Assembly (NCBI GenBank): GCA_039545335.1
Contig: BCIN01000004.1
Coordinates: forward strand, 982,925 to 1,046,924
DNA from: Kondoa subrosea
Taxonomy: Eukaryota
Length of the DNA: 64,000 nucleotides
Direction: 5' to 3'
In this document: positions 5,109 through 59,162 of the stretch, one piece after another
How positions within the stretch are numbered: position 1 is the stretch's first letter
Layout of the letters: the number at the start of each line of letters is the position of its first letter
Translations under genes and position numbers: made by a program
The notes under the pieces: generated by a model
Told to the model about the DNA's origin: nothing
Database searches by the model: none
Seen by the model: the letters and a program-made list of their open reading frames with translations, nothing else

Positions 5109-6660
5109 TCAAGCATCAAGCATCTCTTCCTTCACGTCCAATCTTCCAGCATAATCAGTAATCATTCTCAACCACCTCTGTTGACCCTTTTCCACAATCA
5201 ATTGAAGCGAGATTTCCTCTGAGCGAAAGTCCATCAACACCTTGAAATAATTCACCAGTTCCGTCTTTTGCAATACTCTTTGCTGCACCTCATCCAATCT
5301 CTCACTTCCACATGGCAGAAGGAATGCTCTAGGCAAAATCTTATCCAATTCCAGCATGACATAAAATCTTGAAAGCTTAGGAAAGAGCTTGCGGTCATGT
5401 ACAAGTAGACTGAATGACGACCAAGAAGGGAAAGACTTCATCTTACGATCTTGAAGAGCGAATTTGATCTCGAAATGAATTAGATGCACGGCGCATTCGC
5501 TCTGACTGAGACCCAGGATGAGTTTCTGTACACCAGAATCGGCTGGCACAATGATTACAAGAGACTTGAGAGCTGGAAAGAGATTGAAGAATTCCTTGTA
5601 TCGGATGATGCGGCATGAGCTGGTGAAGTCAAAGGCAAATGTAAGAAACCTCAATCTAACAAACCGAAAAGCGAGTCTCTGAAAAGGCTGTGTAATTGAT
5701 CGCAAACTTTCTTGCCGTATTTCTTCGTAATCGAGCTTGAGGGAGAGCGATACTAAACCTAGACCGAGAAGACCCAAGAAATGGCAGTTCTCCGTCCAAA
5801 GATGGTCTTTGACATCAAGAGCAAAGACGAGCCATCTCCAATAGTAATGCTGTGTGTCTCTATCGGATTTCTTCTGTTTGATGTGCTGCAGGATTGTTTG
5901 CAGCCAACCCAAGGCCTTAATACTGACTCTGAACAGACTACATGTATCAAGATTTGGCAGCTCCAACAGAGCTCTTCCAAAAGCAACCATACTACCCCCT
6001 CTCATGTTGCTCAGGCTCGAGTTGCCGACCAGAATGGAAGATAAAGTGGAAAAGCATGGTAGGCTCTTTATTTCGTTATAAGTTGGCAAGGGCCGCAGCT
6101 GAAAGTGTGCAGTCGGAGAGAGTTGTTCAAACCGGTTTTCGTCTGCGGAAGTGAGAAGTGTCGTGAATTGGGGAAACAGGATCGTAAGTGTTTCGACTTG
6201 GGCAAGCTGCATCACAAGGTCTTTCGATGTGCACGAATCGAAGATGTAATTGTCAGGGATCATTGAGTTGCCCGGCGGTAGAGTGAAGCCGTCTTTGCGT
6301 TGATAGAGTATCCCTGTTCCGACTTCGCAGTAAACCTCTTTTTGCAATCCGGTGCGCCAGGTGAAGCTTCGAACGAAAGCTTCCAGAGGATCTCCACGCA
6401 GCTTGTGTCCTCCGAGCATCTTGAGCAACCCTTTGAAGTGTGTAGGGTATTCAAGAACTGAGAGGTGCCGGACCATAAAAGGGATTGCAAGACGTTTAAG
6501 TCGATCTGAGAAAACAGATCAACAGCACTCAGAAGACGTACGATGATAACTGACGACAAGTCTTGGCAAGACATGAGAGAGTCTTCAATCTGTTCGCGTT
6601 CAGTGAGATTGCAATTGCACCACAAATTTGCTCAATGAGCTCATCAGCGAGCTGGAGCAT
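5109..6660 (-). CDS. F-box-like hypothetical protein (paralog A), 2 exons
   Basis: N-terminal MLQLADELIEQI...LSCLAKTCRQLSS, one intron, then a 455-aa ORF. Clearly similar to 9189-10743. Confidence 0.65.
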
Positions 6661-9188: not shown

Positions 9189-10743
9189 CTACTCGGCTGA
9201 TACTGGTATATCTTGCTCCGTAACATCCATTCTACCCGCATAGTCCGTCATAAACCTTAACCACCTCTTCTTATGTTTTGTCACTGTCAACTGCAAGCCT
9301 AGCTGATTCGTATTCAGATCCATCAGCTCTTGAAACCATTGAGTCAATTGAGATTTGACTGCTATAGGGTTCTTGGCCCTTCTTTTCGCTTGTTGCAAAA
9401 GACCAGAATGCTTATTGATCTTGTCCATCGAAATGACAATGTACAAGCGAGACATTCGAGAGAACACTTCGCGGTCGGCAAGGAGAGCAGAGAAGGACGA
9501 CCAGTCGGGCAATTGCTTCACCTCTTGATCCCCGAATGTGAAATGGAGTTCCAAATGCTTGAGATGTCGAGCGCATTGACTTTGTTTAAGGCCTTCAATA
9601 AGTTTTCTGATACTACGGTTGTTGAAGTCGGCTGGTACAGCCAAGACAAGATTGAGAAGTTGCGGAAAGAGTTGAAAGAAAGCTTTATAACGAACGATGC
9701 GAAGAGAGTTCGGTATGTTGAATGTAAAGTGAAGCCGAAACAGACGCGTGAAGTAGAGATTAAAGAGATGAAAAGGCTGGATAAAGGAGCGGATGCTGAG
9801 CTGTGGCGACTGCTTACTGTAGGTCAGACTTAAGCGGAGTCCTCCAAGACTTTGCGAAAGAAGTGCCAATATCTGAAAGCCGAATCGAAGCTCGTCTTTC
9901 AGTTCGAGCTCGAAGCGAACCCATTTCCAGTGATAGAAGCGTGTAAAGCACACTATGACATCGTCTTCGATCGCCTCCTCGATCATGGCAGCCCAACCTA
10001 ATGCTGCTGGATCGATGTAGCTGATTGCAATCGAGCGTAAAGCAGGCATAGTCAGGATAGCACGGCCCAAATCCTGAAAGTTGTTGCCGCCGTGAAAATG
10101 GCTGGAGCTTGTGTTATTGATGTACACGGATGAGATGGTGGAGAAGCAAGACAGTGTCTGTAATGACTCGAAAGAAGGTACTTGTAGCCGCGGCATTGGT
10201 TGTAGCTCATGCCAACTATCAAAGCGAGAAAGATCAATGGGCGAATGAAGAAGATGTGTATAATGCTGAAAGAAAAAGCCGATTTGATCCAGTGCTGGAA
10301 GTCTACTTGCAATCTCCAGATACGATGATGACTCAAAGATATGATTGGGAGGAATCAGAGCCAGATCTGAAGGTAAAGTAAACCCATCCCTCCGCTTGTA
10401 AAGAGTTCCCGTTGGTTCGTGCAAGTACACCTCACTTTTAAAGCCTAAATCCCATCTTAGAAGCTTGACGTATTGAACAAGCGGATCGTCTCGCTCTTCA
10501 AAGACGTCTAGCATTGTTTGAAGTCCATTCAGATTGAGAGGTCGCACATGGATGTGTTTGACCAACAGAGGCATAGCTAAACATCGCAGCCGCTCTAGAG
10601 GCATGGCTTAGCAGCTAAGCTGACACTGCGCTCTTTAGACACTCACTACACGTCCTGGATATGTAAGCAAGCGTTCTCCCATGTCCTGGCTCCAAACAAA
10701 GATTGAGCGCAACCTCCAGCACTTCATCAGGTAGGCAGAGCAT
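9189..10743 (-). CDS. F-box-like hypothetical protein (paralog B), 2 exons
   Basis: MLCLPDEVLEVAL...LAYISRTCS (LPxE F-box start), one intron, then a 471-aa ORF similar to 5109-6660. Confidence 0.7.
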
Positions 10744-33564: not shown

Positions 33565-33816
33565 TGTAATATATGAAGGTGGAAGATTGAAGTGTAGAAA
33601 GGAAACTTCCTTATCACTCGAAGGACCGAAATCACCGGTTGTCTCCGATGGCTATGTAAGTCAAAGGGAGGCAGAGGAGCACAGCTATCATAGCTACGCC
33701 TGACTGCAGTGCTATCAGCATGTAGATCCGAAAAGATTTGACCTTCCCGCTTGTCAAAAGTAGAGTTCCCGATCGAGATGAACTTGAATGCATATTGTAC
33801 AGCTTCTTACATCCTT

Positions 33817-36800
33817 TCAAGCTACATCCATATCGGATACAGACTCATTGTCCTCTGCAAACAACCTTTCGCTGATAAAGTCTTCATCTTCTCCATCAGC
33901 GAAACCTCTTCCTCCAGAATAAGCCAAAGCCACAGGCAGGAAGACCAACCCATGCAGTGCGCCAGAGATGATCAGTGCGAGCCACATGCGGAAGTAGTAG
34001 GTCTGTCATGACCAGTCAGTGACGCGTCAATAACACAGAAAGCGAGAACTCACTCTCAGCAGCTTCGATCTCGTCAATGCCAATACAGAGATTCCAATGA
34101 GCTTAGTCATAGTAATACCAGAGAAGACCTTGTTCCTAAACTCAGCCCTCTGAATTTCTAAAAGAGTATAATAGGACTCACAGAAGATCCCACATCAGCT
34201 AAAGCGACCCAAGCTCTTTCATTCCTCTCTTTTGGTCCAGAAGGATGATCAAAAGGTAGACCACCTCCCAGAGCACCGGAGAAAGCTCTAGCGATATGAG
34301 AACAAAACTCCACCGATATCCCCACAGCAATGACCAAATTAACCAAAGAAACTGCGTTGAGACTTATAGACCATAGTCCCATGATACCCATGACCATCAT
34401 GACGGACATGAATGTCGTTCCTGCTACCACCGCGCCAGTTCGGAATGACCCAAGCATGAAAGAAGTCATGAAAAATACAGCTAGTAAAGCTAAGAAGAGG
34501 ACTTGACGCGTAGTTGCTGTTATCGTAGAATATTGATCAAAGAAAACGTAGAAGATAGAATAAGGATAAACGTGACCACCACTTTTGGTTGAAAGATCGT
34601 TGGCTATTCGATCAGCAGCTGCCATGGCGTCGATGAAGTCCTCTTGTGATTTTAGTGGGGTGTGATATGTTCTGAAATGGGATGCTGCTACATTATGGGC
34701 TGATTCGATAGAGATAGCAGACGAGTAAGGCGCTTGACCGCCCAAGGGACATGATTCGTCAGTCGGTGTCTTGAGCCATTGTTCCAGATAGCGCATGAAT
34801 TGATCGCCTTCAGGTAATCCTTCCATCGACACGTTCCAACTTTGACTTTCAGCTTCGTAACAAGGCATACATCGTGATTCCGATTCCGTCGAAGCGCAGA
34901 AAGTAGAGTGATCGTTGCGTCTGACTCGACAGCATGTATCAAGGACGGGATTAAGCCATTGGAAGTAATCGTCAAGCCAAACAGCAGGCGGTTCTGCTAA
35001 GAAAGAAGAGTCGGACTGTTTGCGTTGAGCTTCAAGAATATTAGCAACAGATTGATCTTCGCAAGTTGAGAAGCGACCACATAGAGCTTGCTGGCCAGCT
35101 CGAGCAGTAACATTGACCTTTTCCGTGACAAAATAGACTGGCGGTCCAACATCAAGGAAATTATCGATCGCGTCAAAGTAGGAGACCAGATAGGACCGAG
35201 ACGGAAGAGCTAGTCGCTGATCTATATAAAGATGAGACTTGGTCTTGGCAAACGCTAAGAACCATACCGAGTCCAAGATCGACTGTTCTCGCAGATACCC
35301 AGGACAACACAAACATAAGCGAGAAGATAGCAAGCACTGCTTGCTTAGTGTACTTCCGCAACAAGAAAGGCGCATAGTGGTTGGAGATGAAGCGGGTGAT
35401 ACTACTCGACGCAACAGCGTATAAGCTTGTCTTGGAGGCGGGCATCTTTATGCAAGGTAGACAATCAACGCGGTTGGCCTGACAGAAAATCAGCGGGTCC
35501 ACAAGTTCGTATTTTCTTGGCTCACCTCCGTCCTTCGCAAGTCAATAGTGATAGCCGCTACAAATACCGTAACTTGGAGTATCGCATTAATAGCGACTGC
35601 TCCGGCAGCATAGATTGCAAAATTGCGGACAGCTGGCATTCCAACGAGCGCACCAAGCGAGAAAGCCATTGTTTCGCAGACCGCGCTGAGAGTGATCGAA
35701 GGACCCATTCTTGATAGAGCTCGAGCTACTCTTTCCTCTGGTGCTGGCAGACCATCCAAATCTTCATCATATTCTGCTCTGCGTTGCTCATCGTCCATCA
35801 GAGCTTGTCCAGCTCCGCCATGCCGAGGCATTGTTGCGTAGGCTCGGGAATTCTGTCGTTCAAGTTCATGAGCGAGGATGAAGACATTATCCACACCGAT
35901 AGCGAGAACAAGGAAAGGTATGACTTCGGCGATGATGAGAGTGATCTTGATGCCTAGCATGGAGAAGAGTCCAACCGCGGTCGATACCGAAAGCAGGACG
36001 ACTGGATGATTCCGTTAGATGAATCTCAATTGATCACGATGATCTTACTAGCAATTCCCCAAAGACCTAGGAGGAACTTTGACTCCACTAAGACTCTTCG
36101 CATCAGCATTCCTGGCTTCTCCTCTTCATCATCGTCTTCTAGGTAAATAGCTCCGCCGCTCTTGCTTATCCGCCGCAGAACTAGACGGTACGTCCTCCTC
36201 AAGAAGCTTCTAACTACGCCAAATAATCCACCTAGAGTTCCGCCCAGGGCCAGCGAAACATACACAAACATGACTAAGTAAGAAAGAACGACGATCGGTA
36301 CATCAGTGTTTGTGGATTTGTTGAGTTCTTGTTCGAGAGAAACACCAGTAGAATAAGCGATTTGAAGACCCATTTCCGTTCGTGCTCTAGATCCCAGGGC
36401 TTCAAAATAGGCTTGCAAAGTGTTCTCCCATTCTTCAGCCTTAGCTATTACTTGTTTGTCCAGGGAATTGTTGACAACGTAGGTAATAACCAAAGCTCGC
36501 GCTTCTGTTGCCGAGACTACGCTATCTGAGCCATCATCAGGATTGGCGAGCGAGGCAGAATGATTGCCACTGTAGCCAGGAATACCTCCAAAGAGCAGTC
36601 GAGGTGAAAGAGGTTGACCACTAGGTGACAAACAGAGACTTGGACTTGAAGCACATTCATTCAATGAATCTGCCCAAGTTGCTTTCCGAATATTACTGAA
36701 GTCATTGCCAAAGTAGCCCATAAAGCTTTGAGTGACACAATCATCTGCTGATGTAGCTCTTCCAGAAGGAGCGAAGCAGACATCTTTCAATGTATAACCA

Positions 36801-38487
36801 TTTTTAGGTGAAGCCAATTGTCGAATCTCCTCTTCTATTCCGGCCCACCACTTGATTCGTTCATATGAAAGGACAGGTGCATTCGGGTCAAGATTGTCGC
36901 TAAGGAAGATTTGTTCTGTTCGATAGAAAGGCCCAAAATCCGCTTCGAACGCTTCTTTGTTACGAGCCGAATCACTGCCTTTCGCTACCCAAAGCTTGAC
37001 CGGATCTCTTTCTACTTTGAATCTTGCCCAACCAGAATTGAGCAGACCACAAAGTAGTAGACCAAGAACCAGCGTTATATAGGGTTTCGAAGCGCAGAAG
37101 TAGCCTAAGCTGTAAAACCATTTGGAAAGATGTGTATTGACAAAGTATGCTCTAGGTTGGGAAGCTTCTAGAGGACCTCCTTCCAATAGCGATGCACCTC
37201 GACCAAGCCGATTTCTTGACAGCGAGTGTGCCGGTGAGCTGTCCATCATCGACGACCCGCTCGGTGGACCGTTATAGGATCGTGGCAGAGGAGCAGAATT
37301 AGAAGAATGAGAAGATTGACGATCATGGGAGTCTGTTTGATCTTCGTCAAGAGAGATACCGCTGAGGTTCGAATGCCTGTTGCGCAGTTTGGGCAGCAAA
37401 GTGGAGCGACGCAGCCAGATCTTTTGAATTCCCATTCCAAACATGAAGCAGAAAAGAGCTATGCTGTATAGTAGAATCAGAGCGAAGTCGAAGCAGCGTA
37501 CGCGGCCGACTCGGCATTCAGAAGCCTTGATTTCCTGAGGCGAAGGGGTATGTGGTAGTGCCAGGCAATTGTCTGGACAATCCGGACACGCGCATCTAAT
37601 GGTTGGGTCCGACGAATTGCACGCGTTGACCTTGCGATCGAAAGGCTCAATATGCGTATCGGAAATAGGATCAGATCCAGGTATTGGCAGATCTGTAGCA
37701 GGTTGAGGGAAGTCTATCTGGAAGGGAGAACCAAGTCCAGGTCTCTACATACACCTTAAGCTAATGGCAATCTGATTGAGGACTGGACAAACCTCTTGAC
37801 CCATATATCTCAAGAAAGCTAACCAATTCTTTGCTCCTCCGCCTAGGAATTCCATCGCATATCCATTGGTAGCACCAAATTTGACATTTTTACAGCTATC
37901 GAAGAAGCCAGAACCGAAATGCGTTGACACATGGAAAGCCAAACTCTTCACTGCAGGACCAAAAGTAGCAAACGAATCGGCATCTGTTGGCGAGAAAGCT
38001 GAAGTGAAGGAAGATAGATTCTGTGTAGCCGTGACGGAAACAAAAAGAGACTGATCAGGCGAACAAGTAAGGCCACAATAGAAATCGCGGAAGTTCAGAC
38101 GACAAGCAGGACACAAGGCTAAGAGTGGTTCTGCTTGAGCTAGAGATTGCTGGAAAGTGTCAAGCTGATCAGGAGTACAGCAGGCGTGTGTCCATTCGGA
38201 TTCTGGGCCACAGACTTCGCGCAATGATGCTTGAAACGCTGGATCCACCTGTTGATACGTTTGAATACATGACAGCTGCACCGATGTATACAGCTACACA
38301 CAGATCTTGCTTTCTGATTGTCTGCACAAGGAAGCGCCTGTCCAAAGATTCCGCCTTTACGACCGCATTCACCATACATTGAGCATCTTCCAGCTTCCCT
38401 GATTGTTCCCTGTCCCCATCTAGGGTTATCCGCTTGAGCTAATGCAAAGGTATCAAGCAGCACCAAAGCTGCGATGGGTATCCGCAT
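33817..38487 (-). CDS. NCR1: Niemann-Pick type C1 sterol transporter, multi-exon
   Basis: Signal peptide, Cys-rich NPC1 N-terminal domain ([24 protein letters not shown]), [11 protein letters not shown], sterol-sensing domain ([18 protein letters not shown]), [25 protein letters not shown]. Confidence 0.95.
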
Positions 38488-38745
38488 GAACTCGCTGTTC
38501 AAGTCCAAGCTGCAGTCCAAGCTATTGAATGCACGAACGCCCAAAATGCAACGTATTGCTACATTGCAGCTTTTTTTTTGTGTTTTTGTTATTGATTACC
38601 CTATATTACTTGTCCTTCTTTCCTGCACCGATATGCGAAATAATATTACAAGGGAGACGAGAAGAGAGATTATGCAATGTAGATGGTGAACTTCCTTTGC
38701 GTATGGAGCGTTCCGGTATCTTGCATGCTTTGGTGATATGCAGAA

Positions 38746-47732: not shown

Positions 47733-50700
47733 ATGAAAGTGACTTCTGAAGCTAATGTCCGCAATCTCACAGAAGAAAGCAGTGCTTCTTCTTTCATTTC
47801 GAGCGACGATACCCGTGATAAGAGCTCAGATACCCAGGCTGCAGAAGGAGACAAGCATAAGGATCCTTGTTGTGAGCATGAAGCAGTGAAATCGCATGCA
47901 GAGCGCTGACTTGCTCCAATAGTCTCCTACAATGCACTCATCAATGGTGATGAGGATAAAGAAGCTGTCAAGACTTTCTATCAGCGGTGTAAGCCTTTAC
48001 TCTCCGCCTCCGCGGGCTAAAACTGACCGACGCAAAGTACCGACGCCAACCTCAACGAAGGCCGCATTCAACATAGCTTTAGCAGCAACTCCAATCGATG
48101 CACACCAGTTCTGGACTTCAGTAGAACAGCAAATTACCGTGCCAAATTCCCTACATCAAGAACAGCTGGCTCGAACAGATGCAACAGTAGATCAAATGAA
48201 TGAAGTCAGGAAACGAAATGGTATAGAGTCTCTTCAGTCTCACGATATCTCTCGGTAAGTTCGTCCTTTGGCCTTCTTTTCCTCCTCTCCAATAAATTTC
48301 TCAGTTGTGGCCCTCCTGAGATGAGCTTGGGCTTGGTTGGAGTTTACGACAAATCTAAGAGCGGAAGCAATCACTCGCTGCTGTCGATTGATTCGCTGGC
48401 CTGGACAACAACAAAGTTGAGAGAAAAAGGAGCCTCCAATTCGAAAGTCAGCTTGTTTCTTGTTTACCTCCCGCTTAAACCACTGACACCATGCCCAGTT
48501 TTCGATGGTTGATGTGGAACTGGTGCGAACCGATATCGTAGCCGCTCCTAAGTTGTTCACCCAAAGCGGCTACGGGCTGCCACCTCAAGCTCAAGATGTC
48601 CGCTTATCACTCGATCATGCTGCAGATTGGCTGGAAAGACATGCCTTTCTGCCATCAGTCCATGTAGCAATTGGACACGCTGCCGATATCGTGATGTCAA
48701 ATCTGGAGAGGATCTATAGGCGAGAGAAGAGTCATCGACCAGAATTGAAATTACTGAAATCTGGTATCAAGCAAGTCTTTCCATCTTTACCTACAAGAGA
48801 AGTACCGGAAGATGAAGAGATGCATATCAGATTCGTGAGTAGAGCTTGCTGATTCTCAATTCCTTCAATACTCATCCAGCTATGCACTTAGTGGATGTTG
48901 CACGAAGGCAGCAAGGGTTACTCTGCATGCTTCCTTGGCTTTCATCTAAGTGCAGCCAAATATCCGCATTTCAGAACAGTTCTCTTTGCGAAGGAAATGT
49001 TTAGTGTGGTATGTTTTTCGTGTAAAATTCAATGCCGTCCAGCATTCTGATAGCTCAAGCAGGAATCAATCGTCAATATGATTATACACGAAGGCGATCC
49101 TGAATCTTATGTACCTAGTATGCGCAAATCGCTAAGTATGCGACGATAATTCTGATCGGAGTTTCTTTTGCCTTTTCTAGAGTACGCGTGGGACTATTCT
49201 CTATCAGCGCTCCCAGCTCAACCTGGTCATACTCAACACGTGGAGAAAGGTGGACTACATCGCAAACTCAATTGTCTCCTCGCTGGTATTCGTCGAGCTC
49301 AGCAAGTCGATCCCAATATTCCCGACCCCAGCTACGACATGATGCCATACGATATAGCTACCGACCTTGAGGCACTAGGTTACGATCCTTCTACTCGTCC
49401 TCAAGGCATGACCGCGTTTGGTCACGCGTCCTCTTTCTACATTCGTAAATTTGCTCCCCAATGCTCAGGTGAGGACGTTGCTCTATTTATATTCGTTGAC
49501 TCAGTGCATATACAGACGACCCAGAAGTCAAGCAAGCTTGGTTGGATAGCCTTCCTCAGCTTTCGGATGACCCAGAAGTCAAGCAAGCTTGGCTGGATAG
49601 CCTTCCTCAGCTTTCGAAAGATCCAGAAGTGAAGCAAGCTTGGTTGGATAAACTGTTGGCAAAACTTCCGCAACTTTCNNNNNAAACTGTTGGCAAAACT
49701 TCCGCAACTTTCGGATGACCCAGAAGTCAAACAAGCTTGGCTGGATAGCCTTCCTCAGCTTTCGAAAGATCCAGAAGTCAAGCAAGCTTGGTTGGCTCTG
49801 CTACCACAGTGCTCAAAAGATCCAGAAGTCAAGCAAGCTTGGTTGGCTCTGCTACCACAGTGCTCCGAAGATCCAGAAGTCAAGCAAGCTTGGTTGGACA
49901 GTCTGCCTCAGCTTTCAGAGGACCCAGAAGTCAAACAAGCTTGGATGGATAGCCTTCCTCAGCTTTCGAAAGATCCAGAAGTCAAACAAGACTGGCATAT
50001 AAAAAATTTGGATCGCTTCAATGTTGAAGCTGCTTTGCAGTCGTTTCTAGACAGATTACCACTAAATGCTGCAAACCTAGTCTCTGAACATTTACAGCTG
50101 GAAAATTTGTCGCAGCTCAGCGATGAAGCATCTTTTCGTCTTTCTTGGCTTTCCAAAGTGCCAAAAACCTTCACTGAAGCTCAAGCTCGGCAACATTGGC
50201 TCGACCTGCTTCCTGAAAAGGTCTTGACTCCACAAGTACAGCAAAAGTGGCTCGAATTTATCCCTCTATGCTCCAAATATCCTGTAGTCAAGAAGAATTG
50301 GCTGAATCATCTTCCTGCACTCTCTTCTCATCCAGCCGTGCAGCAATCCTTGCTTTCCTCTTTACCCGATTGCAAGACTGGAGCTGAAGTGAAGGAGACT
50401 TGGTTGAGAATGCTACCTGGATGTTGCGATGACGCTGAGATGAAGCGAGCATGGCACACTCACTTACCTCAAACTCTTTTGCACCCTTCCATGATCGAAA
50501 GCTGGCTCAACTTACTACCGCAATTAGCTGCCAACCCGCTTATCCAACAAGCTTTCAGCTCCTTGTCTGATCGATCAGCGGATGTGATGCAGCAGAACTG
50601 GATGAATCTTCTACCTCAGGGTACTGGTGATGATCGTGTGGAAGAAGTTTGGCTGGAACTCATGCCCATGCCCGAAAAACCAAGTTTGCAGCATGTTCTT

Positions 50701-51085
50701 TCAACTGCCTACTTGAGCTCATCCTATTCTGCAGGTGTTTCCGATCATTACGTCAAAAAAGGTGTAACCTCTCCTCGCAAGAGTAGGCAGTATTGATATC
50801 TTAGACAGCTATGACGACTGACCAATGCGTGCAGACAGCTCAAAGGCAAAGCAGCAATCATCTCAACAGTCGAAAGTCACTCGCACGCACAAACGAAAGA
50901 ACGATGTTCAAAGTGATGTGGATCAAGCAGTTTTCCGAGCGATGAAGCAGAATCCGTCAGCAGACGTAGAAGACATCAAAGCCTGGCTGAAAAAGCATGA
51001 ACCTGAGCTTCGCGAAAAGATGGACAAACGCTTAGCAGCGAGGATAAAACCTGCGATGAAGAAATTCAATGCAGGCAAAAGATGA
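47733..51085 (+). CDS. Orphan multi-exon protein: possible UDG-superfamily-like domain, 17-aa tandem repeats and a basic C-terminal domain
   Basis: Frame can be kept from MKVTSEANV through GT-AG introns to KFAPQCS|DDPEVKQAWLDSLPQLS repeats and a last exon ending MKKFNAGKR*. Contains a 5-N assembly gap. Confidence 0.65.
49518..49995 (+). repeat. Coding 51-bp tandem repeat (DPEVKQAWLDSLPQLSK-type unit), at least 9 unit starts, spanning an N gap
   Basis: GAYCCAGAAGTSAARCAAG starts at 49518, 49569, 49620, 49717, 49768, 49819, 49870, 49921 and 49972. Ns at 49679-49683. Confidence 0.95.
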
Positions 51086-51951: not shown

Positions 51952-54112
51952 AACATAGAGGTAGGAAAGTGCTAAGTCCAGCTTGAAGTATAAACGCCCA
52001 ATACACTTGCAGCAAGCAGGGCCTGGTATCTTATAGCGCCAGCGCAAATCTCTATCAGATGCTCAGGTATCTTTGCTTGGCGCTGAAGCAGGCGAGCTGC
52101 CTTCCCCTTCGCTACTTTCGATGAAAGCTTTGTTCGAGGTCAACCGTGATCCTTGAATATCTCGAGGCCAGACACTGTCTAGCCACTATTCTGTCTGCTT
52201 CTCATCCACCTTGCTCTTTCTGCTGTAGAAATCTGTCATGTCTGGCGCTTCTTTGCGATTTGTTCCACGAGTGATTTCATTTGTTTTGCCTTGGCTTTGA
52301 AGTGCTCTCTCAATCTGTTATTGCTGCAGTCCTTTCGTGATTTAATCAACAAGGCTGGTTACGATGCAGTCGGATAAGGCATCTCGTCATTACAAAGGAT
52401 AGGCCAGGCAAGGTGATTGCAAGTATGGAGACTAAAAAGCGCAATGGTAACATCAAGCGTTTCTTCTAGACTCAATCAGGCATTTGGAGTGATTAATGAA
52501 TCTTCTGAATGGATTGCATGGAATTCTCATTTCAAGTCTGGTCGATACAATGGCTTTGTGGTCGATACAATGGCTTCGTTAGCTCTAACGAGCTCAGGTC
52601 TACGGATGACAGAAGCGTTCGTTCTCTCCGGCTTGAATCTCTGCTTTCTTCGACTGATAGGAATCGCAGAAGCACTGATCCATCAATCGCGTGGATGCAG
52701 TGGGATTCAGTGCGCAGTAAGGCTCTCTCCAGATCAGCTTCCTTTGTGCTGCTCATAGTCCCGGAGATCAATCAGCGTAAAACTTCTCTCACTACCTATA
52801 TATGCATTTTGAATTTGAAACAATGTAAAGGTCATCCATCCAAACAATCACTTATATCATCATCTTGATCAGAAAGACTGACGATTTGGTCGCTGCTGGC
52901 ACGCATACGCAATACATCGCCAATCCGCCGATGCACCGGCATAGCAAAATATCAAATTCGATGTAAGTATACGTGTAATCGCAGCTCAAGTGATGAGACT
53001 CATGATATTGCACAGGATGGGGTAGAACGTGATTGGAAGTCAACTGCAAGATCTTCCGGGCTATGCTGTAGATGAATCAAAGTGAATGTCTTCCACCACT
53101 CAAGGTGCAGCGCCTACAGAAGCAGAAGACTTGAATATGTAGCTGAGCTTTGGTTTTTTTTGGTCAGAAGATGTAGACCTGCAGTCAAGATTGCCATGGA
53201 GAATGATGCTTCGAGAAGGTGCATTACTTCTTTTGCTTCAATTCTGAACGTCCGATATGGTTTGAATTCGTAAGCGACGCACTGACAAGAGTCTGTCTTC
53301 AAGAGACTCTTACAAATATGGGCAGTGAGTAGTCTCTACTGCACATCTGTGACGCGCGGTGATGTTCAAAGGTCACAGGTTTGCTTGTAACTCCGCCGAT
53401 GCGAAAAGCCCCAAGAGAAGTTTTTGCATGCGTGGAGTAAACACCTTAAGATGGACAATAAAAGAACCGGTCAAAGGCCCTCGTTAATCGCTCAAGCATG
53501 AGGAAGTCAAGGCCTCGGCAGCTACCTTGGACCATATCCTGCACGCTTTCTTCGCGAGAAAGTCATCAATGAAGCTCTGCGCATCTTCGAGCTAGATCAT
53601 CTTGAAGCCCATTGGGGGCCTAAGTGTTTCTTTGCATGCTATGTGTGATAAACGTTTCGAGACCTTTTCCATCCTCCTTCTCAGTCATCTTCCAGACCAG
53701 GTAGTTCACTTTTCCTCGTCTCTGCTGCCTTCTCTAGTGTATGCCACAGCTTGAGCGTGATTCGTCCAATTTCGTCCCATCTCTTGCTGTCAAGACCTAG
53801 CAGGTAGTCCATCACTTTTACTTCCTTGACATCCCTGTTGAGCTTCTGTGTCTCTTGCTCTTGCACCATTCGCAAATTTCTTCCTCTTCGCTGTCCCTGA
53901 TCTTCCCTCTCGAGCCAATGAGCCAATCAGTCGATCATGCGATGAAACGATGAAACGATATTCTCGATGAAAACGAGATTCTCGATTGGCTTCGAAGTCA
54001 GCTACAGCCGACCACTACGTTAGTTTTCCGGGGCTGTCCTACAGAACTATGGTCAAGTATTCAGAGAGCGCACAAGATGTTAGTGGTCTCCAATATGTCA
54101 TGGACGGTTAGC

Positions 54113-54181
54113 GTGAGTTTCTCTCTGGAAGAGAAAAGAAAAGGAAATAATTTCTCCTCCTTCCTTCTTAAAAAAAAACAG
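54113..54181 (+). other. 69-nt GT-AG (spliceosomal-type) intron in the tRNA-Ile D-stem, between nt 11 and 12
   Basis: Starts GTGAGT and ends CAG. Precise removal restores the D-stem and A-box. Only a weak branch-site candidate (CTTAA, 54167-54171). Confidence 0.75.
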
Positions 54182-54208
54182 TCAGTTGGTTAGAGCGTCG
54201 TACTAATA

Positions 54209-54224
54209 GATCATCCTATTCGTA
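54209..54224 (+). other. Canonical 16-nt tRNA intron at position 37/38
   Basis: GATCATCCTATTCGTA lies one base 3' of the AAT anticodon and contains TATT, complementary to AATA. Confidence 0.88.
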
Positions 54225-54260
54225 ATGCGAAGGTCACCAGTTCAACCCTGGTACTGTTCA

Positions 54261-54269
54261 TTTCTTTTT
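54261..54269 (+). terminator. RNA polymerase III terminator (T tract)
   Basis: TTTCTTTTT immediately follows the tRNA discriminator base. Confidence 0.75.
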
Positions 54270-54899
54270 GCCTGCGTTTTGGGGAAAAACACCGCGTCAT
54301 TGTCAGTTTCCGAGATATCCGTTTCTTTTTGATCTTTTTTCCTGACAATCTCTGTGTGACTTAAGAAAACAAAACCGCTGCATATTGCTTGTCTATTGAT
54401 TAGACGCCAGCCGCATTTCGGCACGAAAAAGCGAACTGTAATCTGATCTGTGCAGGCCACTGCAGCCAGACGTGAAAGCAGCTTTCAAAGTTCGCGGCGC
54501 GTTTGTCATTACATAATCCGCGAGGAAGGTCCAAGCGCTCTGACATTCCGACACAGTCGAGCTCTGGCACAAGATTTAAACCTGACAATAGGATTAAGAG
54601 GAAGTCACTCCAGTTAGCATTCTACGAGTGAAGGCATATAGATGCACAGCCCAATGAGCATTTAGATGGTACTTTCGGAACGCATACGAGCAATTTCACG
54701 ATTACGTAACCAATTTCCGATCATGTTAGGGATCGGCCATCGTTTCATCAGAACAGTCTCTCTCACAGTCACTGCACGTCGAATCTGTCTGCCTGCTCAT
54801 CCTATTGCAACCAGTGGGTTTCCTTGGAATACGCACCAATACACCCTCATTTGGCTAGCAGAATCATCTCAGATCTCCTACCTTCGCTACTACTCCAAG

Positions 54900-55507
54900 A
54901 TGAAGCCTGAATCAGAAGGTATATCAAGCTCTATATCCCGTTGCCTTGCACTCATTGAACGCAGTCATCTCCGAATTCAATGAATACGTCAACATGTCCG
55001 CAGACGAGCTTCAAGAATGGTTAGGCTCTGAGGAATCCGAAGGTGCTGGTTGGAAGTCATCTAATGGTGACGGAGAGACTGTTGGTCATGAAAGGTCCGT
55101 TCATCCAACAAAAGTAGACGAAGCTTATAATGACAGAACAGCGGTCGAAAAATCGTTGATATTCTTGAGCGAAACCCGGACAAGGACGAAGATAAATACA
55201 CTGAAGAAGGTAAGGCATATGCACACCAGCGAACACAGACCGATTTGCACCGATAGATATCGCTCACATGCGCAAAGTTGTTGCTTATTGCAAGCGTCAT
55301 CTAGCCCAGGAAGACAAGATGAAGGTGAGTAACAGTCTCATATATGTCTGAGCATACTAATGTTGATACAGGAAACTAAGAGTCCAGAGGAGTTGGAGCA
55401 AACCAAATCTACTAAATCGCTCAAGGTGAGCTCTCCGCGTTGTGAATCGTGCTTGTGCTGAGCAAACATTCTAGAACTGGGGACATGATCCATTGAAGAA
55501 TATGTAA
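54900..55507 (+). CDS. DUF3140-family small protein, multi-exon
   Basis: FNEYVNMSADELQEWL, ETVGHESGRKIVDIL, HMRKVVAYCKRHLAQ, SLKNWGHDP. Confidence 0.85.
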
Positions 55508-56470: not shown

Positions 56471-59162
56471 ATGTCTGAAGCAAGGTGAATACACAAAGCA
56501 TGACGGAATACACTTCTGTCCTATGCTTGCAAAAGACCTCTGGCTGATCTGGTCCTGTGTCACAGCTGTGATATCGGTCTTATTGGCCTGGCCGTACGTC
56601 CAAAGAGCTCGGAATAGGAGATGTAGCAAGGCTTATATGAGAGAATCCGCAAAACAGGTCATGGGCTGCAATTTGGTGCTCAAGTAAGTTCTCTAGCTGG
56701 TCTGAGTCCCTTACATGCTCATTTTGCTTCTGTAGCATGAACGACAAGGTCCGGCATCATTCAGAGTCTCTAAAATGCTGAATACTTACTCGATTCTATA
56801 CTTAGGGCTTCAAAGTCGGTGTCTTCAACAGAACAGTGGTACGTCTGCTTCTGAAAGCTCTCTAATGCAATCTCACCTTGTGCTTTCAGTCCAAAGTCGA
56901 TGCTTTCCTTGAAGAGGGCGCAAAAGGTTTGAACAGGTCCAACTCGAATGCACATTCATCTCAAGTATTTTGCACGCAGGCACCAACGTCGTTGGCACTC
57001 ACTCTTTGGAAGAACTTATCAAAGTACTCAAGAAACCAAGAAAGATTATTCTTCTCGTCAAAGCAGGCAAAGCGGTAGACGATTTCATTGAAGCTATGAT
57101 TAAAGCTGGTTTGGAAAAGGGTGACATCATTATTGATGGTGGAAACTCTCACTACCCTGATTCTATGCGTCGCACAAAAGAATTGGAAACCAAAGGTTTC
57201 CTTTTCGTCGGTTCAGGCGTTTCCGGTGGTGAAGAGGGAGCTCGTCATGGACCTTCTATCAGTGAGTAACAACCAAAGCTAGGAGAGGATTGTACTCAGA
57301 TTGCTTGTGTGTTGTCTCACAGTGCCCGGTGGATCAGATGCTGCTTGGCCTGAAATCAAGGAAATCTTCCAAAAGACCGCTGCGCAGTCTGACGGAGAGG
57401 TGAGGATGCTGTTCTACTTGTCTGGCAATAATTGATCCTCGCCATAGCCATGCTGCGACTGGGTGTATGTGTCCATTGCCTTGAAGTAGAATATTCACTG
57501 ACCCTTCCTCCATAGCGGTCCCGAAGGAGCAGGACACGTAGGTCGATCTCCTACTTCAGCTCGTCTGTAGCTGAGTTGGTTGTTCGCGCTACAGTACGTC
57601 AAGATGGTTCATAATGGCATCGAATATGGTGATATGCAATTGATCTGCGAAGCCTACGATATTATGAAGCGCGGTCTTCAACTACCTGATAAAGAGATTG
57701 CTCAAGTCTTCACAAAGTGGAACAAGGGCGTTCTTGATTCTTTCCTCATTGAGATTGTTCGTCATCCTTTACCTATCGCAATATGTATATGCTTATCGGG
57801 TATTATGGGTGATGTTCAGACTTGCGATATCCTCAATTACGATGATGAAGATGGTACACCTATGGTCAACAAGATTTTAGATGTTGCTGGCCAAAAAGGA
57901 ACAGGAAAATGGACCGCCATCAACGCTCTCGATCTAGGTATGCAACGTATTTACGACATCTGTACATCAGCTCATGGTCCACTGTAGGCATGCCCGTTAC
58001 TCTGATCGGAGAAGCCGTCTTTGCTCGATGCTTGTCATCCATCAAGTCCGAGCGTATCGCTGCATCCAAGAAGCTCAATGGTCCAGATGCTGAACCTTTC
58101 AAGGGCGACAAGCAACAATTTATTGATGATCTCGAACAAGCTCTTTACGCCTCAAAGATCATCTCGTTGGTTTATTTTACTGTCAGGTTGCAGTGTGATG
58201 CTTAGACTGTAGCCATTGCGAACAGATACACCCAAGGTTTCATCCTCATGCGTGAAGCTGCTAAAGAATATGGCTGGAAGTTGAACAACGCTGGCATTGC
58301 CCTCATGTGGCGCGGAGGTTCGTCGACCGTCGACTATGCTCGAAGAGCTGGTGTCTTGACAATCTGATGTACAGGCTGCATCATTCGCTCTGTCTTCCTT
58401 AAGGATATCACCAAAGCTTTCAGGGACGAACCCGAATTGGAATCCCTCCTCTTCAACCAATTCTTCATGAATGCTATTCACAAAGCTCAACCTGGCTGGC
58501 GCCGAATTTGCGCTCAAGCGTCATTATGGGGAATTGTGAGTGCCCATGCTATGAGCTTCAGACAATTCTGATGCTATACATTGATGTCGCCTGACAGCCT
58601 ATTCCTGCTTTCTCGACCGCTTTGTCCTTCTATGACGGTTACCGTACTGAGAACCTACCTGCTTCTTTATTGCAAGCTCAGTGAGTGAGATGCTGCGTGC
58701 ACTGGCGTCATGCTGATGCACGTCTTTTCTCTCCTTTCACAGGAGAGATTACTTTGGTGCTCGTAAGCTTCTCATCATCTGACATATCGGAACTGAGACT
58801 GATTACTTTGTATGTCCCAGATGTCAGTCGAAGGCTATGCAGATCTTTGTATTTGACTAATCTTTGCATCATCTTCTAATTGACAGAGTAAGTACCGTAC
58901 ATGATAGACCTATACGTTTTGGGCTAACGATTTGTTTTGCAGCTTTCCGCATCAAGCCAGAGCACGCCAACGAGAAGTACAAGGAAGGCGAAGACATTCA
59001 CGTCAACTGGACTGGCCGAGGTCAGACCTCATTGCGTTCCGATGTTCGATGACTATTGCTAATAAAGTGATGCAGGTGGAAACATCAGCTCATCTACGTA
59101 TGTTCTACTTTATCAAAACCATTGGTCATACTCATGTTTCTACAACTAGTTACAACGCTTAA
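56471..59162 (+). CDS. GND1: 6-phosphogluconate dehydrogenase (decarboxylating), about 21 introns including microexons
   Basis: [80 protein letters not shown]. Confidence 0.97.

Follow-up and report, generated by a model that had tools for sequence, protein, structure and literature searches.

A tRNA-Ile(AAU) gene with a putative spliceosomal intron at position 11/12 and a canonical tRNA intron at 37/38

In the textbook view of tRNA biology, two splicing systems are kept apart, with the spliceosome acting on transcripts of RNA polymerase II (Pol II) and a protein endonuclease together with a ligase acting on transfer RNAs (tRNAs). To our knowledge, transcripts of RNA polymerase III (Pol III) are generally not spliced, U6 of Schizosaccharomyces pombe being the exception. 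In this study, we analysed a stretch of 64,000 nucleotides (nt) from contig BCIN01000004.1 of Kondoa subrosea, hereafter called the window, and describe a tRNA-Ile(AAU) gene that carries a 16-nt intron at the canonical site between nt 37 and 38 (37/38) and, in addition, a 69-nt insert with GT-AG ends between C11 and U12 (11/12). We consider it likely that this is a live gene whose transcript, probably made by Pol III, would be spliced by the spliceosome at 11/12 and subsequently by endonuclease and ligase at 37/38.

The closest described systems are introns in genes for small non-coding RNAs of fungi. U6 introns have been found in S. pombe and many fungi (Tani & Ohshima 1989, 1991; Canzler et al. 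2016, via the available part of PMC5855946, as for all PMC sources below), and they possess a canonical 5' splice site, branch site, and 3' splice site, being otherwise unconserved (PMC5855946). The locus described here resembles them in having a short structured Pol III-type non-coding RNA as host, the size of fungal mRNA introns, and a fungal organism. Unlike U6, its host is no part of the spliceosome, so that an origin by reverse splicing at the catalytic centre is not directly applicable; moreover, the intron here splits the A box, and the same precursor would also need the protein-only splicing of tRNAs. Introns are also known in the genes that encode the small nuclear RNAs U1, U2, and U5 in Rhodotorula hasegawae, a red yeast (Takahashi et al. 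1993, 1996, via PMC5855946), and fungal U3 small nucleolar RNA genes carry spliceosomal introns (PMC5832005). R. hasegawae belongs to Pucciniomycotina (PMC4777782), the group nearest to an NPC1-like protein encoded in the window. Those cases share with ours GT-AG introns in small non-coding RNA genes; they differ in their hosts, ours being a tRNA, and in lacking the second, protein-dependent intron present here.

Cyanidioschyzon merolae and the nucleomorphs of cryptophytes and chlorarachniophytes offer a different kind of relative, namely ectopic and multiple tRNA introns (PMC3728597, PMC4090602). As in our case, an extra intron lies in the D-arm of a nuclear tRNA gene besides one at 37/38, and standard finders miss such genes. 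Those introns are credited to the tRNA endonuclease and either have junctions resembling a bulge-helix-bulge or measure 3-24 nt, whereas the 69-nt intron shows no such motif and belongs to a set of loci with conserved spliceosomal signals. The introns at 37/38 in the window and in two related loci (16, 13, and 31 nt), variable in length and sequence, are like the canonical ones removed by SEN/TSEN and ligase, from which the 69-nt intron differs by its position at 11/12, its GT-AG ends, and a putative branch-site motif.

As far as its text was available, Yoshihisa 2014 (PMC4090602) treats eukaryotic tRNA genes with non-canonical insertions as pseudogenes for the most part, except for those of nucleomorphs and red algae, and the word stem 'spliceosom' is absent from that part. 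In the available part of Phizicky & Hopper 2023 (PMC10275265), the spliceosome is mentioned once, only as a contrast. The accessible portions of PMC11146597, PMC13578239, PMC3978253, and the preprint 10.1101/2025.06.17.660180 added nothing on spliceosomal tRNA introns, and no description of a spliceosomal intron in a tRNA gene was found in the full-text literature, with most subscription journals lying outside this search.

Anatomy of the interrupted gene

The gene occupies positions 54102-54260 of the forward strand. The original prediction, made from the sequence alone, had recognised a tRNA-Ile body at 54182-54260 that lacks its first 11 nt and had assigned these to 54102-54112, and our analysis agreed with it: removal of the 69-nt insert restored a 7-bp acceptor stem, a GCTC/GAGC D-stem, and a 9-nt D-loop, the acceptor strand of exon 1 forming 7/7 pairs with 54253-54259. 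Both the D-stem 5' strand and the A box begin in exon 1, which holds the first half of each. Removal of both introns by coordinates gave a cloverleaf of 74 nt with 21/21 standard stem pairs, the T-loop TTCAACC, and the anticodon loop CTAATAA; the conserved U8, A14, G18G19, T-loop, and A73 are all present, as is the anticodon AAU with A37. As predicted, the boundaries of the insert cannot slide, because the flanking bases differ at each junction (C54112 from G54181, and G54113 from T54182). The observation of an interrupted tRNA-Ile(AAU) gene is confirmed.

Run on the native window, ARAGORN reported no tRNA at all, with or without its intron mode, and Rfam revealed no tRNA in the window at the gathering score and none at E<=10 around the locus. 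Neither tool found anything at the two related native loci described below, which bears out the expectation that standard finders would miss such genes. When 54113-54181 was deleted, as had been proposed, ARAGORN called a tRNA with a 16-nt intron. It set this intron after nt 33 and named the gene Thr(cgt), because TCGTA is present twice; the canonical placement at 37/38 gives the anticodon AAT and agrees with the two related loci, for which ARAGORN itself gives Ile(aat). The separate 16-nt intron and the Ile(AAU) identity of the original prediction were therefore retained despite the offset.

As a control for chance, each GT..AG segment on both strands of the window was removed in turn and ARAGORN was run on the result. 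Among 29,894 deletions of 40-100 nt and 186,434 of 20-400 nt, only two led to a tRNA call, and both concerned this locus, namely 54113-54181 and 54113-54185, the latter taking the next AG and damaging the D-arm. ARAGORN is tolerant, since 24 of 1296 arbitrary deletions around the site were accepted as well. For this reason it was rejected as a judge of the exact boundaries, which rest on the canonical D-arm together with the GT-AG ends.

In regard to splice signals, we compared the insert with 20 mRNA introns mapped in the window, 16 in a gene for 6-phosphogluconate dehydrogenase (6PGDH) and four in the NPC1-like gene. The 6PGDH introns were mapped in a substitution-tolerant manner with a protein designated P0121, of which 454 of 492 residues were placed, the last 38 residues and the last exons staying out. 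The local introns were 47-81 nt long (median 55). Their commonest donor was GTGAGT (5/20), the very donor of the insert, whose use by several introns of the window had been noted beforehand; GTACGT occurred in 2/20, both sequences fitting the local donor consensus GTRNGT, and the commonest acceptor was CAG (13/20). The claim that the length of the insert matches local introns held insofar as 69 nt falls inside their range, and had to be qualified insofar as it exceeds 19 of the 20. Similarly, the branch site had been called weak, and CTTAA is indeed all that the insert offers; this is not unusual here, as a strict CTRAY motif was present in only 8/20 local introns and CTTAA also occurs in the NPC1-like intron 37745-37792 at a similar distance from the 3' end. 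Altogether, donor, acceptor, length, and a loose branch site support a fit of the insert to local mRNA introns.

The original prediction had further pointed out that the insert has no run of four T and had deduced that Pol III could read through it. The absence of TTTT is correct, and the argument was dropped, since 81.5% of random 69-mers of the window are likewise free of TTTT and 15/20 local introns lack it (present in 5/20). Two further candidates were rejected. An origin of the insert from a repeat or introner found no support within the 64-kb window, where no second copy exists and the best other match is 13-14 nt long. A special structure of the 69-nt intron was also discarded (minimum free energy of -11.4 kcal/mol, z = 0.03 against shuffles). 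Separately, we observed that the intron 3' end together with T12 (54176-54182, AAACAGT) is complementary at 6/7 positions to the acceptor 3' strand ACTGTTC; it may compete with exon 1 in the precursor or be a coincidence.

Related loci, compensatory changes, and genomic copies

The original prediction had proposed a search for tRNA halves parted by GT..AG spacers. We used the pattern AGC-GTNNGT-N38-68-AG-TCAGTTGGTTAGAGC, in which the last element is a 15-nt stretch of the D-arm, and which includes neither the acceptor strand nor the tRNA's 3' half. It matched once in the window, not at all in 100 shuffles of the window, and twice in metagenome contigs, with no match in 596 Gb of contigs from prokaryote genomes and none in viral contigs. 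Both metagenome loci, L001 and L002, carry the GT-AG intron at the same site, 11/12. Without it each completes a tRNA that ARAGORN calls, the 11-nt exon 1 pairs 7/7 with the 3' end, and a T-run follows nt 73. No obvious coding open reading frames (ORFs) were found in their flanks.

A comparison of L001 with L002 showed which parts of these genes are held constant. Their exons are identical, while the flanks are no more alike than expected from shuffled sequence, with 31/54 identical positions on the 5' side (shuffled mean 0.56) and 29/60 on the 3' side (0.54); the same is true of the interior of the GT-AG intron (18/29, shuffled mean 0.58). In contrast to this interior, the first 8 intron nt are identical at 8/8 positions (GTACGTTC) and the last 17 at 16/17 (CACTAACACCACsGCAG). 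The donor is GTACGT in both, and the 3' CAG is preceded by a perfect ACTAAC, whose branch A lies 11 nt from the intron end. The putative branch A of CTTAA in the window has the same distance from its intron end. The introns at 37/38 cannot be aligned (13 vs 31 nt) and have only a GCT start in common. L001 and L002 are independent loci in which only the splice signals of the intron are conserved and the flanks are randomised.

Comparison of the window with L001 added evidence on the tRNA itself. All 21 stem pairs are standard in both, although the two distinct sequences compared, a small sample, differ by five double compensatory and two single pair-preserving changes. Two of the five double changes join exon 1 to the acceptor 3' strand, namely 3:70 (A-T to T-A) and 6:67 (G-C to C-G). 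This supports tRNA constraint acting on the gene across the intron, as dead genes would not behave in this manner.

The default explanation for non-canonical insertions in eukaryotic tRNA genes is indeed that of dead genes (Yoshihisa 2014, available part of PMC4090602). Here it would mean that the D-stem insertion inactivated this copy, that its relatives are pseudogenes too, and that intact Ile(AAU) genes elsewhere supply the tRNA. This is disfavoured because the compensatory changes couple exon 1 to the 3' strand across the intron, and it also has to face stem pairs intact in two lineages, the identical exons and conserved splice signals of L001 and L002 amid randomised flanks, and terminator T-runs kept in all four known 3' flanks. 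In addition, the state of the gene copies in the source genome speaks against it.

For these copies, Logan contigs of two DNA runs, X1 and X2, which may represent the source sample, were matched to 54000-54400 at a likeness of at least 80%; the contigs of the probable source sample sum to 18.8 Mb. Matching pieces were found in four of 6171 contigs for X1 and four of 9166 for X2. One 81-nt unitig covering 54180-54260 had a depth of 301.6 in X1, compared with 144-154 in its flanks, and of 99.8 in X2, compared with 54-55. Past 54260 it continues in two ways, either into this locus or into the end of a 70.5-kb contig, whose trailer is related yet diverging and has a TTTT of its own. Because the depth is about doubled and two distinct 3' continuations exist, the genome holds two copies of the tRNA body, both with an identical 16-nt intron.

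The shared unitig begins at 54180, and so AG stands at the 3' splice position of the paralog too, directly before T12, where an intact D-stem would have GC. From 54179 upstream the two copies differ, as they would if the intron had diverged. No branch occurs in the unitig across the 36-nt 3' exon, which speaks against a further copy that shares this exon and has another or no intron at 37/38. No uninterrupted look-alike was found in the X1 and X2 contigs at a likeness of at least 80%, a threshold that leaves a diverged intact Ile(AAU) gene outside its reach. The same site is occupied in a second lineage (L001, L002) and apparently in both genomic copies. With these data at hand, we judge it very unlikely that the genes are dead, and we propose that the GT-AG intron is old and maintained.

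Table 1. Parts of the interrupted tRNA-Ile(AAU) gene in the window and the two related metagenome loci (L001 and L002 are numbered separately from the window).
Feature	Position	Strand	Details
Exon 1, tRNA nt 1-11	54102-54112	+	GGACGGTTAGC; acceptor 5' strand GGACGGT, then U8, A9, G10, C11
GT-AG insert, 69 nt, spliceosomal-type	54113-54181	+	Between C11 and U12; start GTGAGT, end CAG
5' splice site GTGAGT	54113-54118	+	Modal donor of mapped local mRNA introns
Putative branch site CTTAA	54167-54171	+	Sole match to YTNAN in range; putative branch A at 54170, 11 nt from intron end
3' splice site CAG	54179-54181	+	First AG past putative branch
Exon 2, tRNA nt 12-37	54182-54208	+	Rest of D-arm, anticodon stem 5' strand, anticodon AAT at 54205-54207
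Canonical tRNA intron, 16 nt, at 37/38	54209-54224	+	Can pair with anticodon region (CTATT with AATAG)
Exon 3, tRNA nt 38-73	54225-54260	+	T-arm 54236-54252; B-box region ~54239-54249; acceptor 3' strand 54253-54259; A73 = 54260
T-run, Pol III terminator-like	54261-54269	+	TTTCTTTTT; directly 3' of tRNA
L001	593-733		9.1-kb marine scaffold; GT-AG intron 54 nt at 11/12; 37/38 intron 13 nt
L002	55-209		1.1-kb contig from another project; GT-AG intron 50 nt at 11/12; 37/38 intron 31 nt

Splicing machinery and transcription

Eukaryotic tRNA endonuclease measures from the folded mature domain. Since a split D-stem keeps this domain from forming, removal of the GT-AG intron would have to come first, and an endonuclease reading of the 69-nt intron itself is hard to reconcile with such a substrate. 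According to that reading, it would be a non-canonical tRNA intron cut by the tRNA endonuclease, as in C. merolae and nucleomorphs, or by another protein enzyme, with the GT-AG ends being coincidental. Non-canonical D-arm introns that are truly excised are known from nucleomorphs and red algae (available parts of PMC4090602 and PMC3728597), the mechanism being unknown for some of them.

We consider what the junctions themselves look like. The bulge-helix-bulge motif was defined as two 3-nt bulges around a 4-bp helix, in a strict or a relaxed form. At the junctions of the window, L001, and L002, the central helix reached at most 2-3 of 4 bp, and only in shifted registers, with 0-1 bp in the outer helices, so that an intron of this type was rejected for all three loci. 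The L001 intron alone folds at 0.0 kcal/mol, and in the predicted fold of all three precursors the acceptor stem is kept (7/7) with the intron looped out. What L001 and L002 conserve are exactly the spliceosomal signals (GTACGT, ACTAAC, CAG), no pairing between exon and intron being conserved, and in the window both length and signals match local mRNA introns. Removal of the 69-nt intron by the tRNA endonuclease or another protein enzyme is accordingly rated as highly improbable.

The suggestion of the original prediction that one pre-tRNA may need both splicing machineries is supported by the conserved signals, the covariation, the failure of the bulge-helix-bulge motif, and the copy situation. 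From these we infer the following course of events. Pol III would transcribe the gene by means of the intact B box and the T-run terminator into a precursor of about 170 nt. The spliceosome would remove the 69-nt GU...AG intron using the donor GUGAGU, the weak putative branch CUUAA, and the acceptor CAG; this would join the 11-nt exon 1 to the body and create the D-stem, so that the RNA could take the tRNA fold. Afterwards, the 16-nt intron at 37/38 would be taken out by the tRNA splicing endonuclease and ligase, with the ends completed by RNase P, RNase Z, and CCA addition.

Regarding the polymerase, each of the four 3' flanks known (window, paralog, L001, and L002) has a run of T4 or T5 no more than 17 nt from nt 73. 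The background of such runs in the window is 4.4% per site, and four of four would arise by chance with a probability of about 4e-6, an approximation that applies the window composition to all four. As these T-runs follow nt 73 throughout and the B-box region (54239-54249) is intact, Pol III transcription is favoured, as for S. pombe U6.

The intron could also be spliceosomal in a transcript of Pol II, either as a unit of its own or within a longer non-coding RNA, from which RNase P and RNase Z would free the tRNA. The spliceosome is normally recruited in connection with Pol II and the cap. We kept this alternative because the A box is interrupted by the intron, the first exon comprises 11 nt plus a short leader, and two CCAAT boxes lie about 180 nt upstream on the same strand (53912-53930); furthermore, the locus sits in a stretch of about 3.8 kb without a recognised coding gene. 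A Pol II unit, however, would have no reason to keep the T4-T5 runs, which are present in each of the four flanks against the low background. The B box is intact, and nothing is shared among the regions upstream of the window gene, L001, and L002. That Pol III transcripts can be spliced is shown by U6 of S. pombe (available part of PMC5855946). On balance, transcription by Pol II seems unlikely to us.

Several points weigh against a live gene served by Pol III, spliceosome, and tRNA endonuclease in this order. For the spliceosome, a Pol III transcript that lacks a cap and has a very short first exon would be an unusual substrate. The A box (nt 8-19) is split at 11/12, which leaves no obvious way of setting Pol III initiation ahead of the 11-nt exon 1. 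The CTTAA branch of the window copy is weak, and the absence of TTTT from all three GT-AG introns is not significant, with a joint chance of about 0.6. The comparison comprises three loci only, and the paralog is seen from 54180 downstream, i.e., without its exon 1 and its intron. Contig depth does not equal copy number and some records may have been filtered out, and the copy check reaches intact genes only down to its likeness threshold.

Taking both sides together, it still appears probable to us that the spliceosome acts on a Pol III precursor at 11/12 before endonuclease and ligase act at 37/38. Most likely, these loci represent a new host class for mRNA-type introns and a new pairing of the two splicing systems on one RNA.

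Surroundings of the locus and meaning of the finding

Among 14 neighbouring ORFs, a single one had a Pfam match; this DUF3140 gene, starting near 54973, is the nearest recognised coding gene. Upstream of the tRNA gene, by about 110-190 nt, adjacent CCAAT boxes (GAGCCAAT and GAGCCAATCAG) are located within 53912-53990 on the forward strand, and 3' of them follow short direct and inverted repeats (GATGAAACGATGAAACGAT, and ATTCTCGAT twice). The Logan unitig carrying the locus ends near 53980.

The 6PGDH gene (56471-59100, forward strand) contains at least 16 introns of 48-81 nt. P0121 derives from a JGI contig of 1679 nt, the size of a transcript, and is 100% identical on the 6PGDH query exon, for which reason environmental transcript data of the source organism or a very close one seem to exist. 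The NPC1-like gene (33800-38500, reverse strand) encodes a protein with a sterol-sensing domain and has at least four short introns; with only 48% identity, the protein of Mixia osmundae is the nearest to its product, and those of Microbotryum and other Pucciniomycotina come next. Since no closer protein than this is available for comparison, the host would be a deep-branching basidiomycete of this kind from a poorly sampled, unannotated lineage, and the hits listed include no protein encoded by the window's own genome. Elsewhere in the window, an ORF at 49119-50796 (forward strand) encodes many tandem units PEVKQAWLD(S/A)LPQ(L/C)S and is interrupted by an assembly gap of 5 N at 49679-49683. 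A pair of paralogous ORFs, each some 470 aa long and apparently free of introns, was identified at 5109-6518 and 9189-10607 (both on the reverse strand), 2.7 kb apart.

If the proposed course is true, tRNA would join the short list of non-coding RNAs with mRNA-type introns, and it would be the first RNA on that list that is neither a part of the spliceosome nor a product of Pol II. After U6 of S. pombe, it would offer the second natural test case for a spliceosome working on uncapped Pol III transcripts, here with a short first exon, and the tolerance of a Pol III promoter for a split A box would become a question of its own. As regards intron gain, a site shared by two lineages would imply either long retention or site-specific insertion.

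In a wider reading, whose chances we see as evenly balanced, all genes for the essential tRNA-Ile(AAU) in a whole basidiomycete-like clade would carry an ancient spliceosomal intron at 11/12, so that decoding of the main Ile codons would depend on the spliceosome working on a Pol III transcript and on the tRNA endonuclease after it. Such genes requiring two splicing machineries would form a hidden class that escapes all current tRNA finders and databases and may extend to other tRNAs and kingdoms. Already under the proposed course, the tRNA catalogues of some fungi would be incomplete, as tools of the tRNAscan type would be blind to such genes, and an apparently missing Ile(AAU) gene may be their signature. 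For the organism itself, the proposed course would tie the supply of an essential tRNA to splicing capacity.

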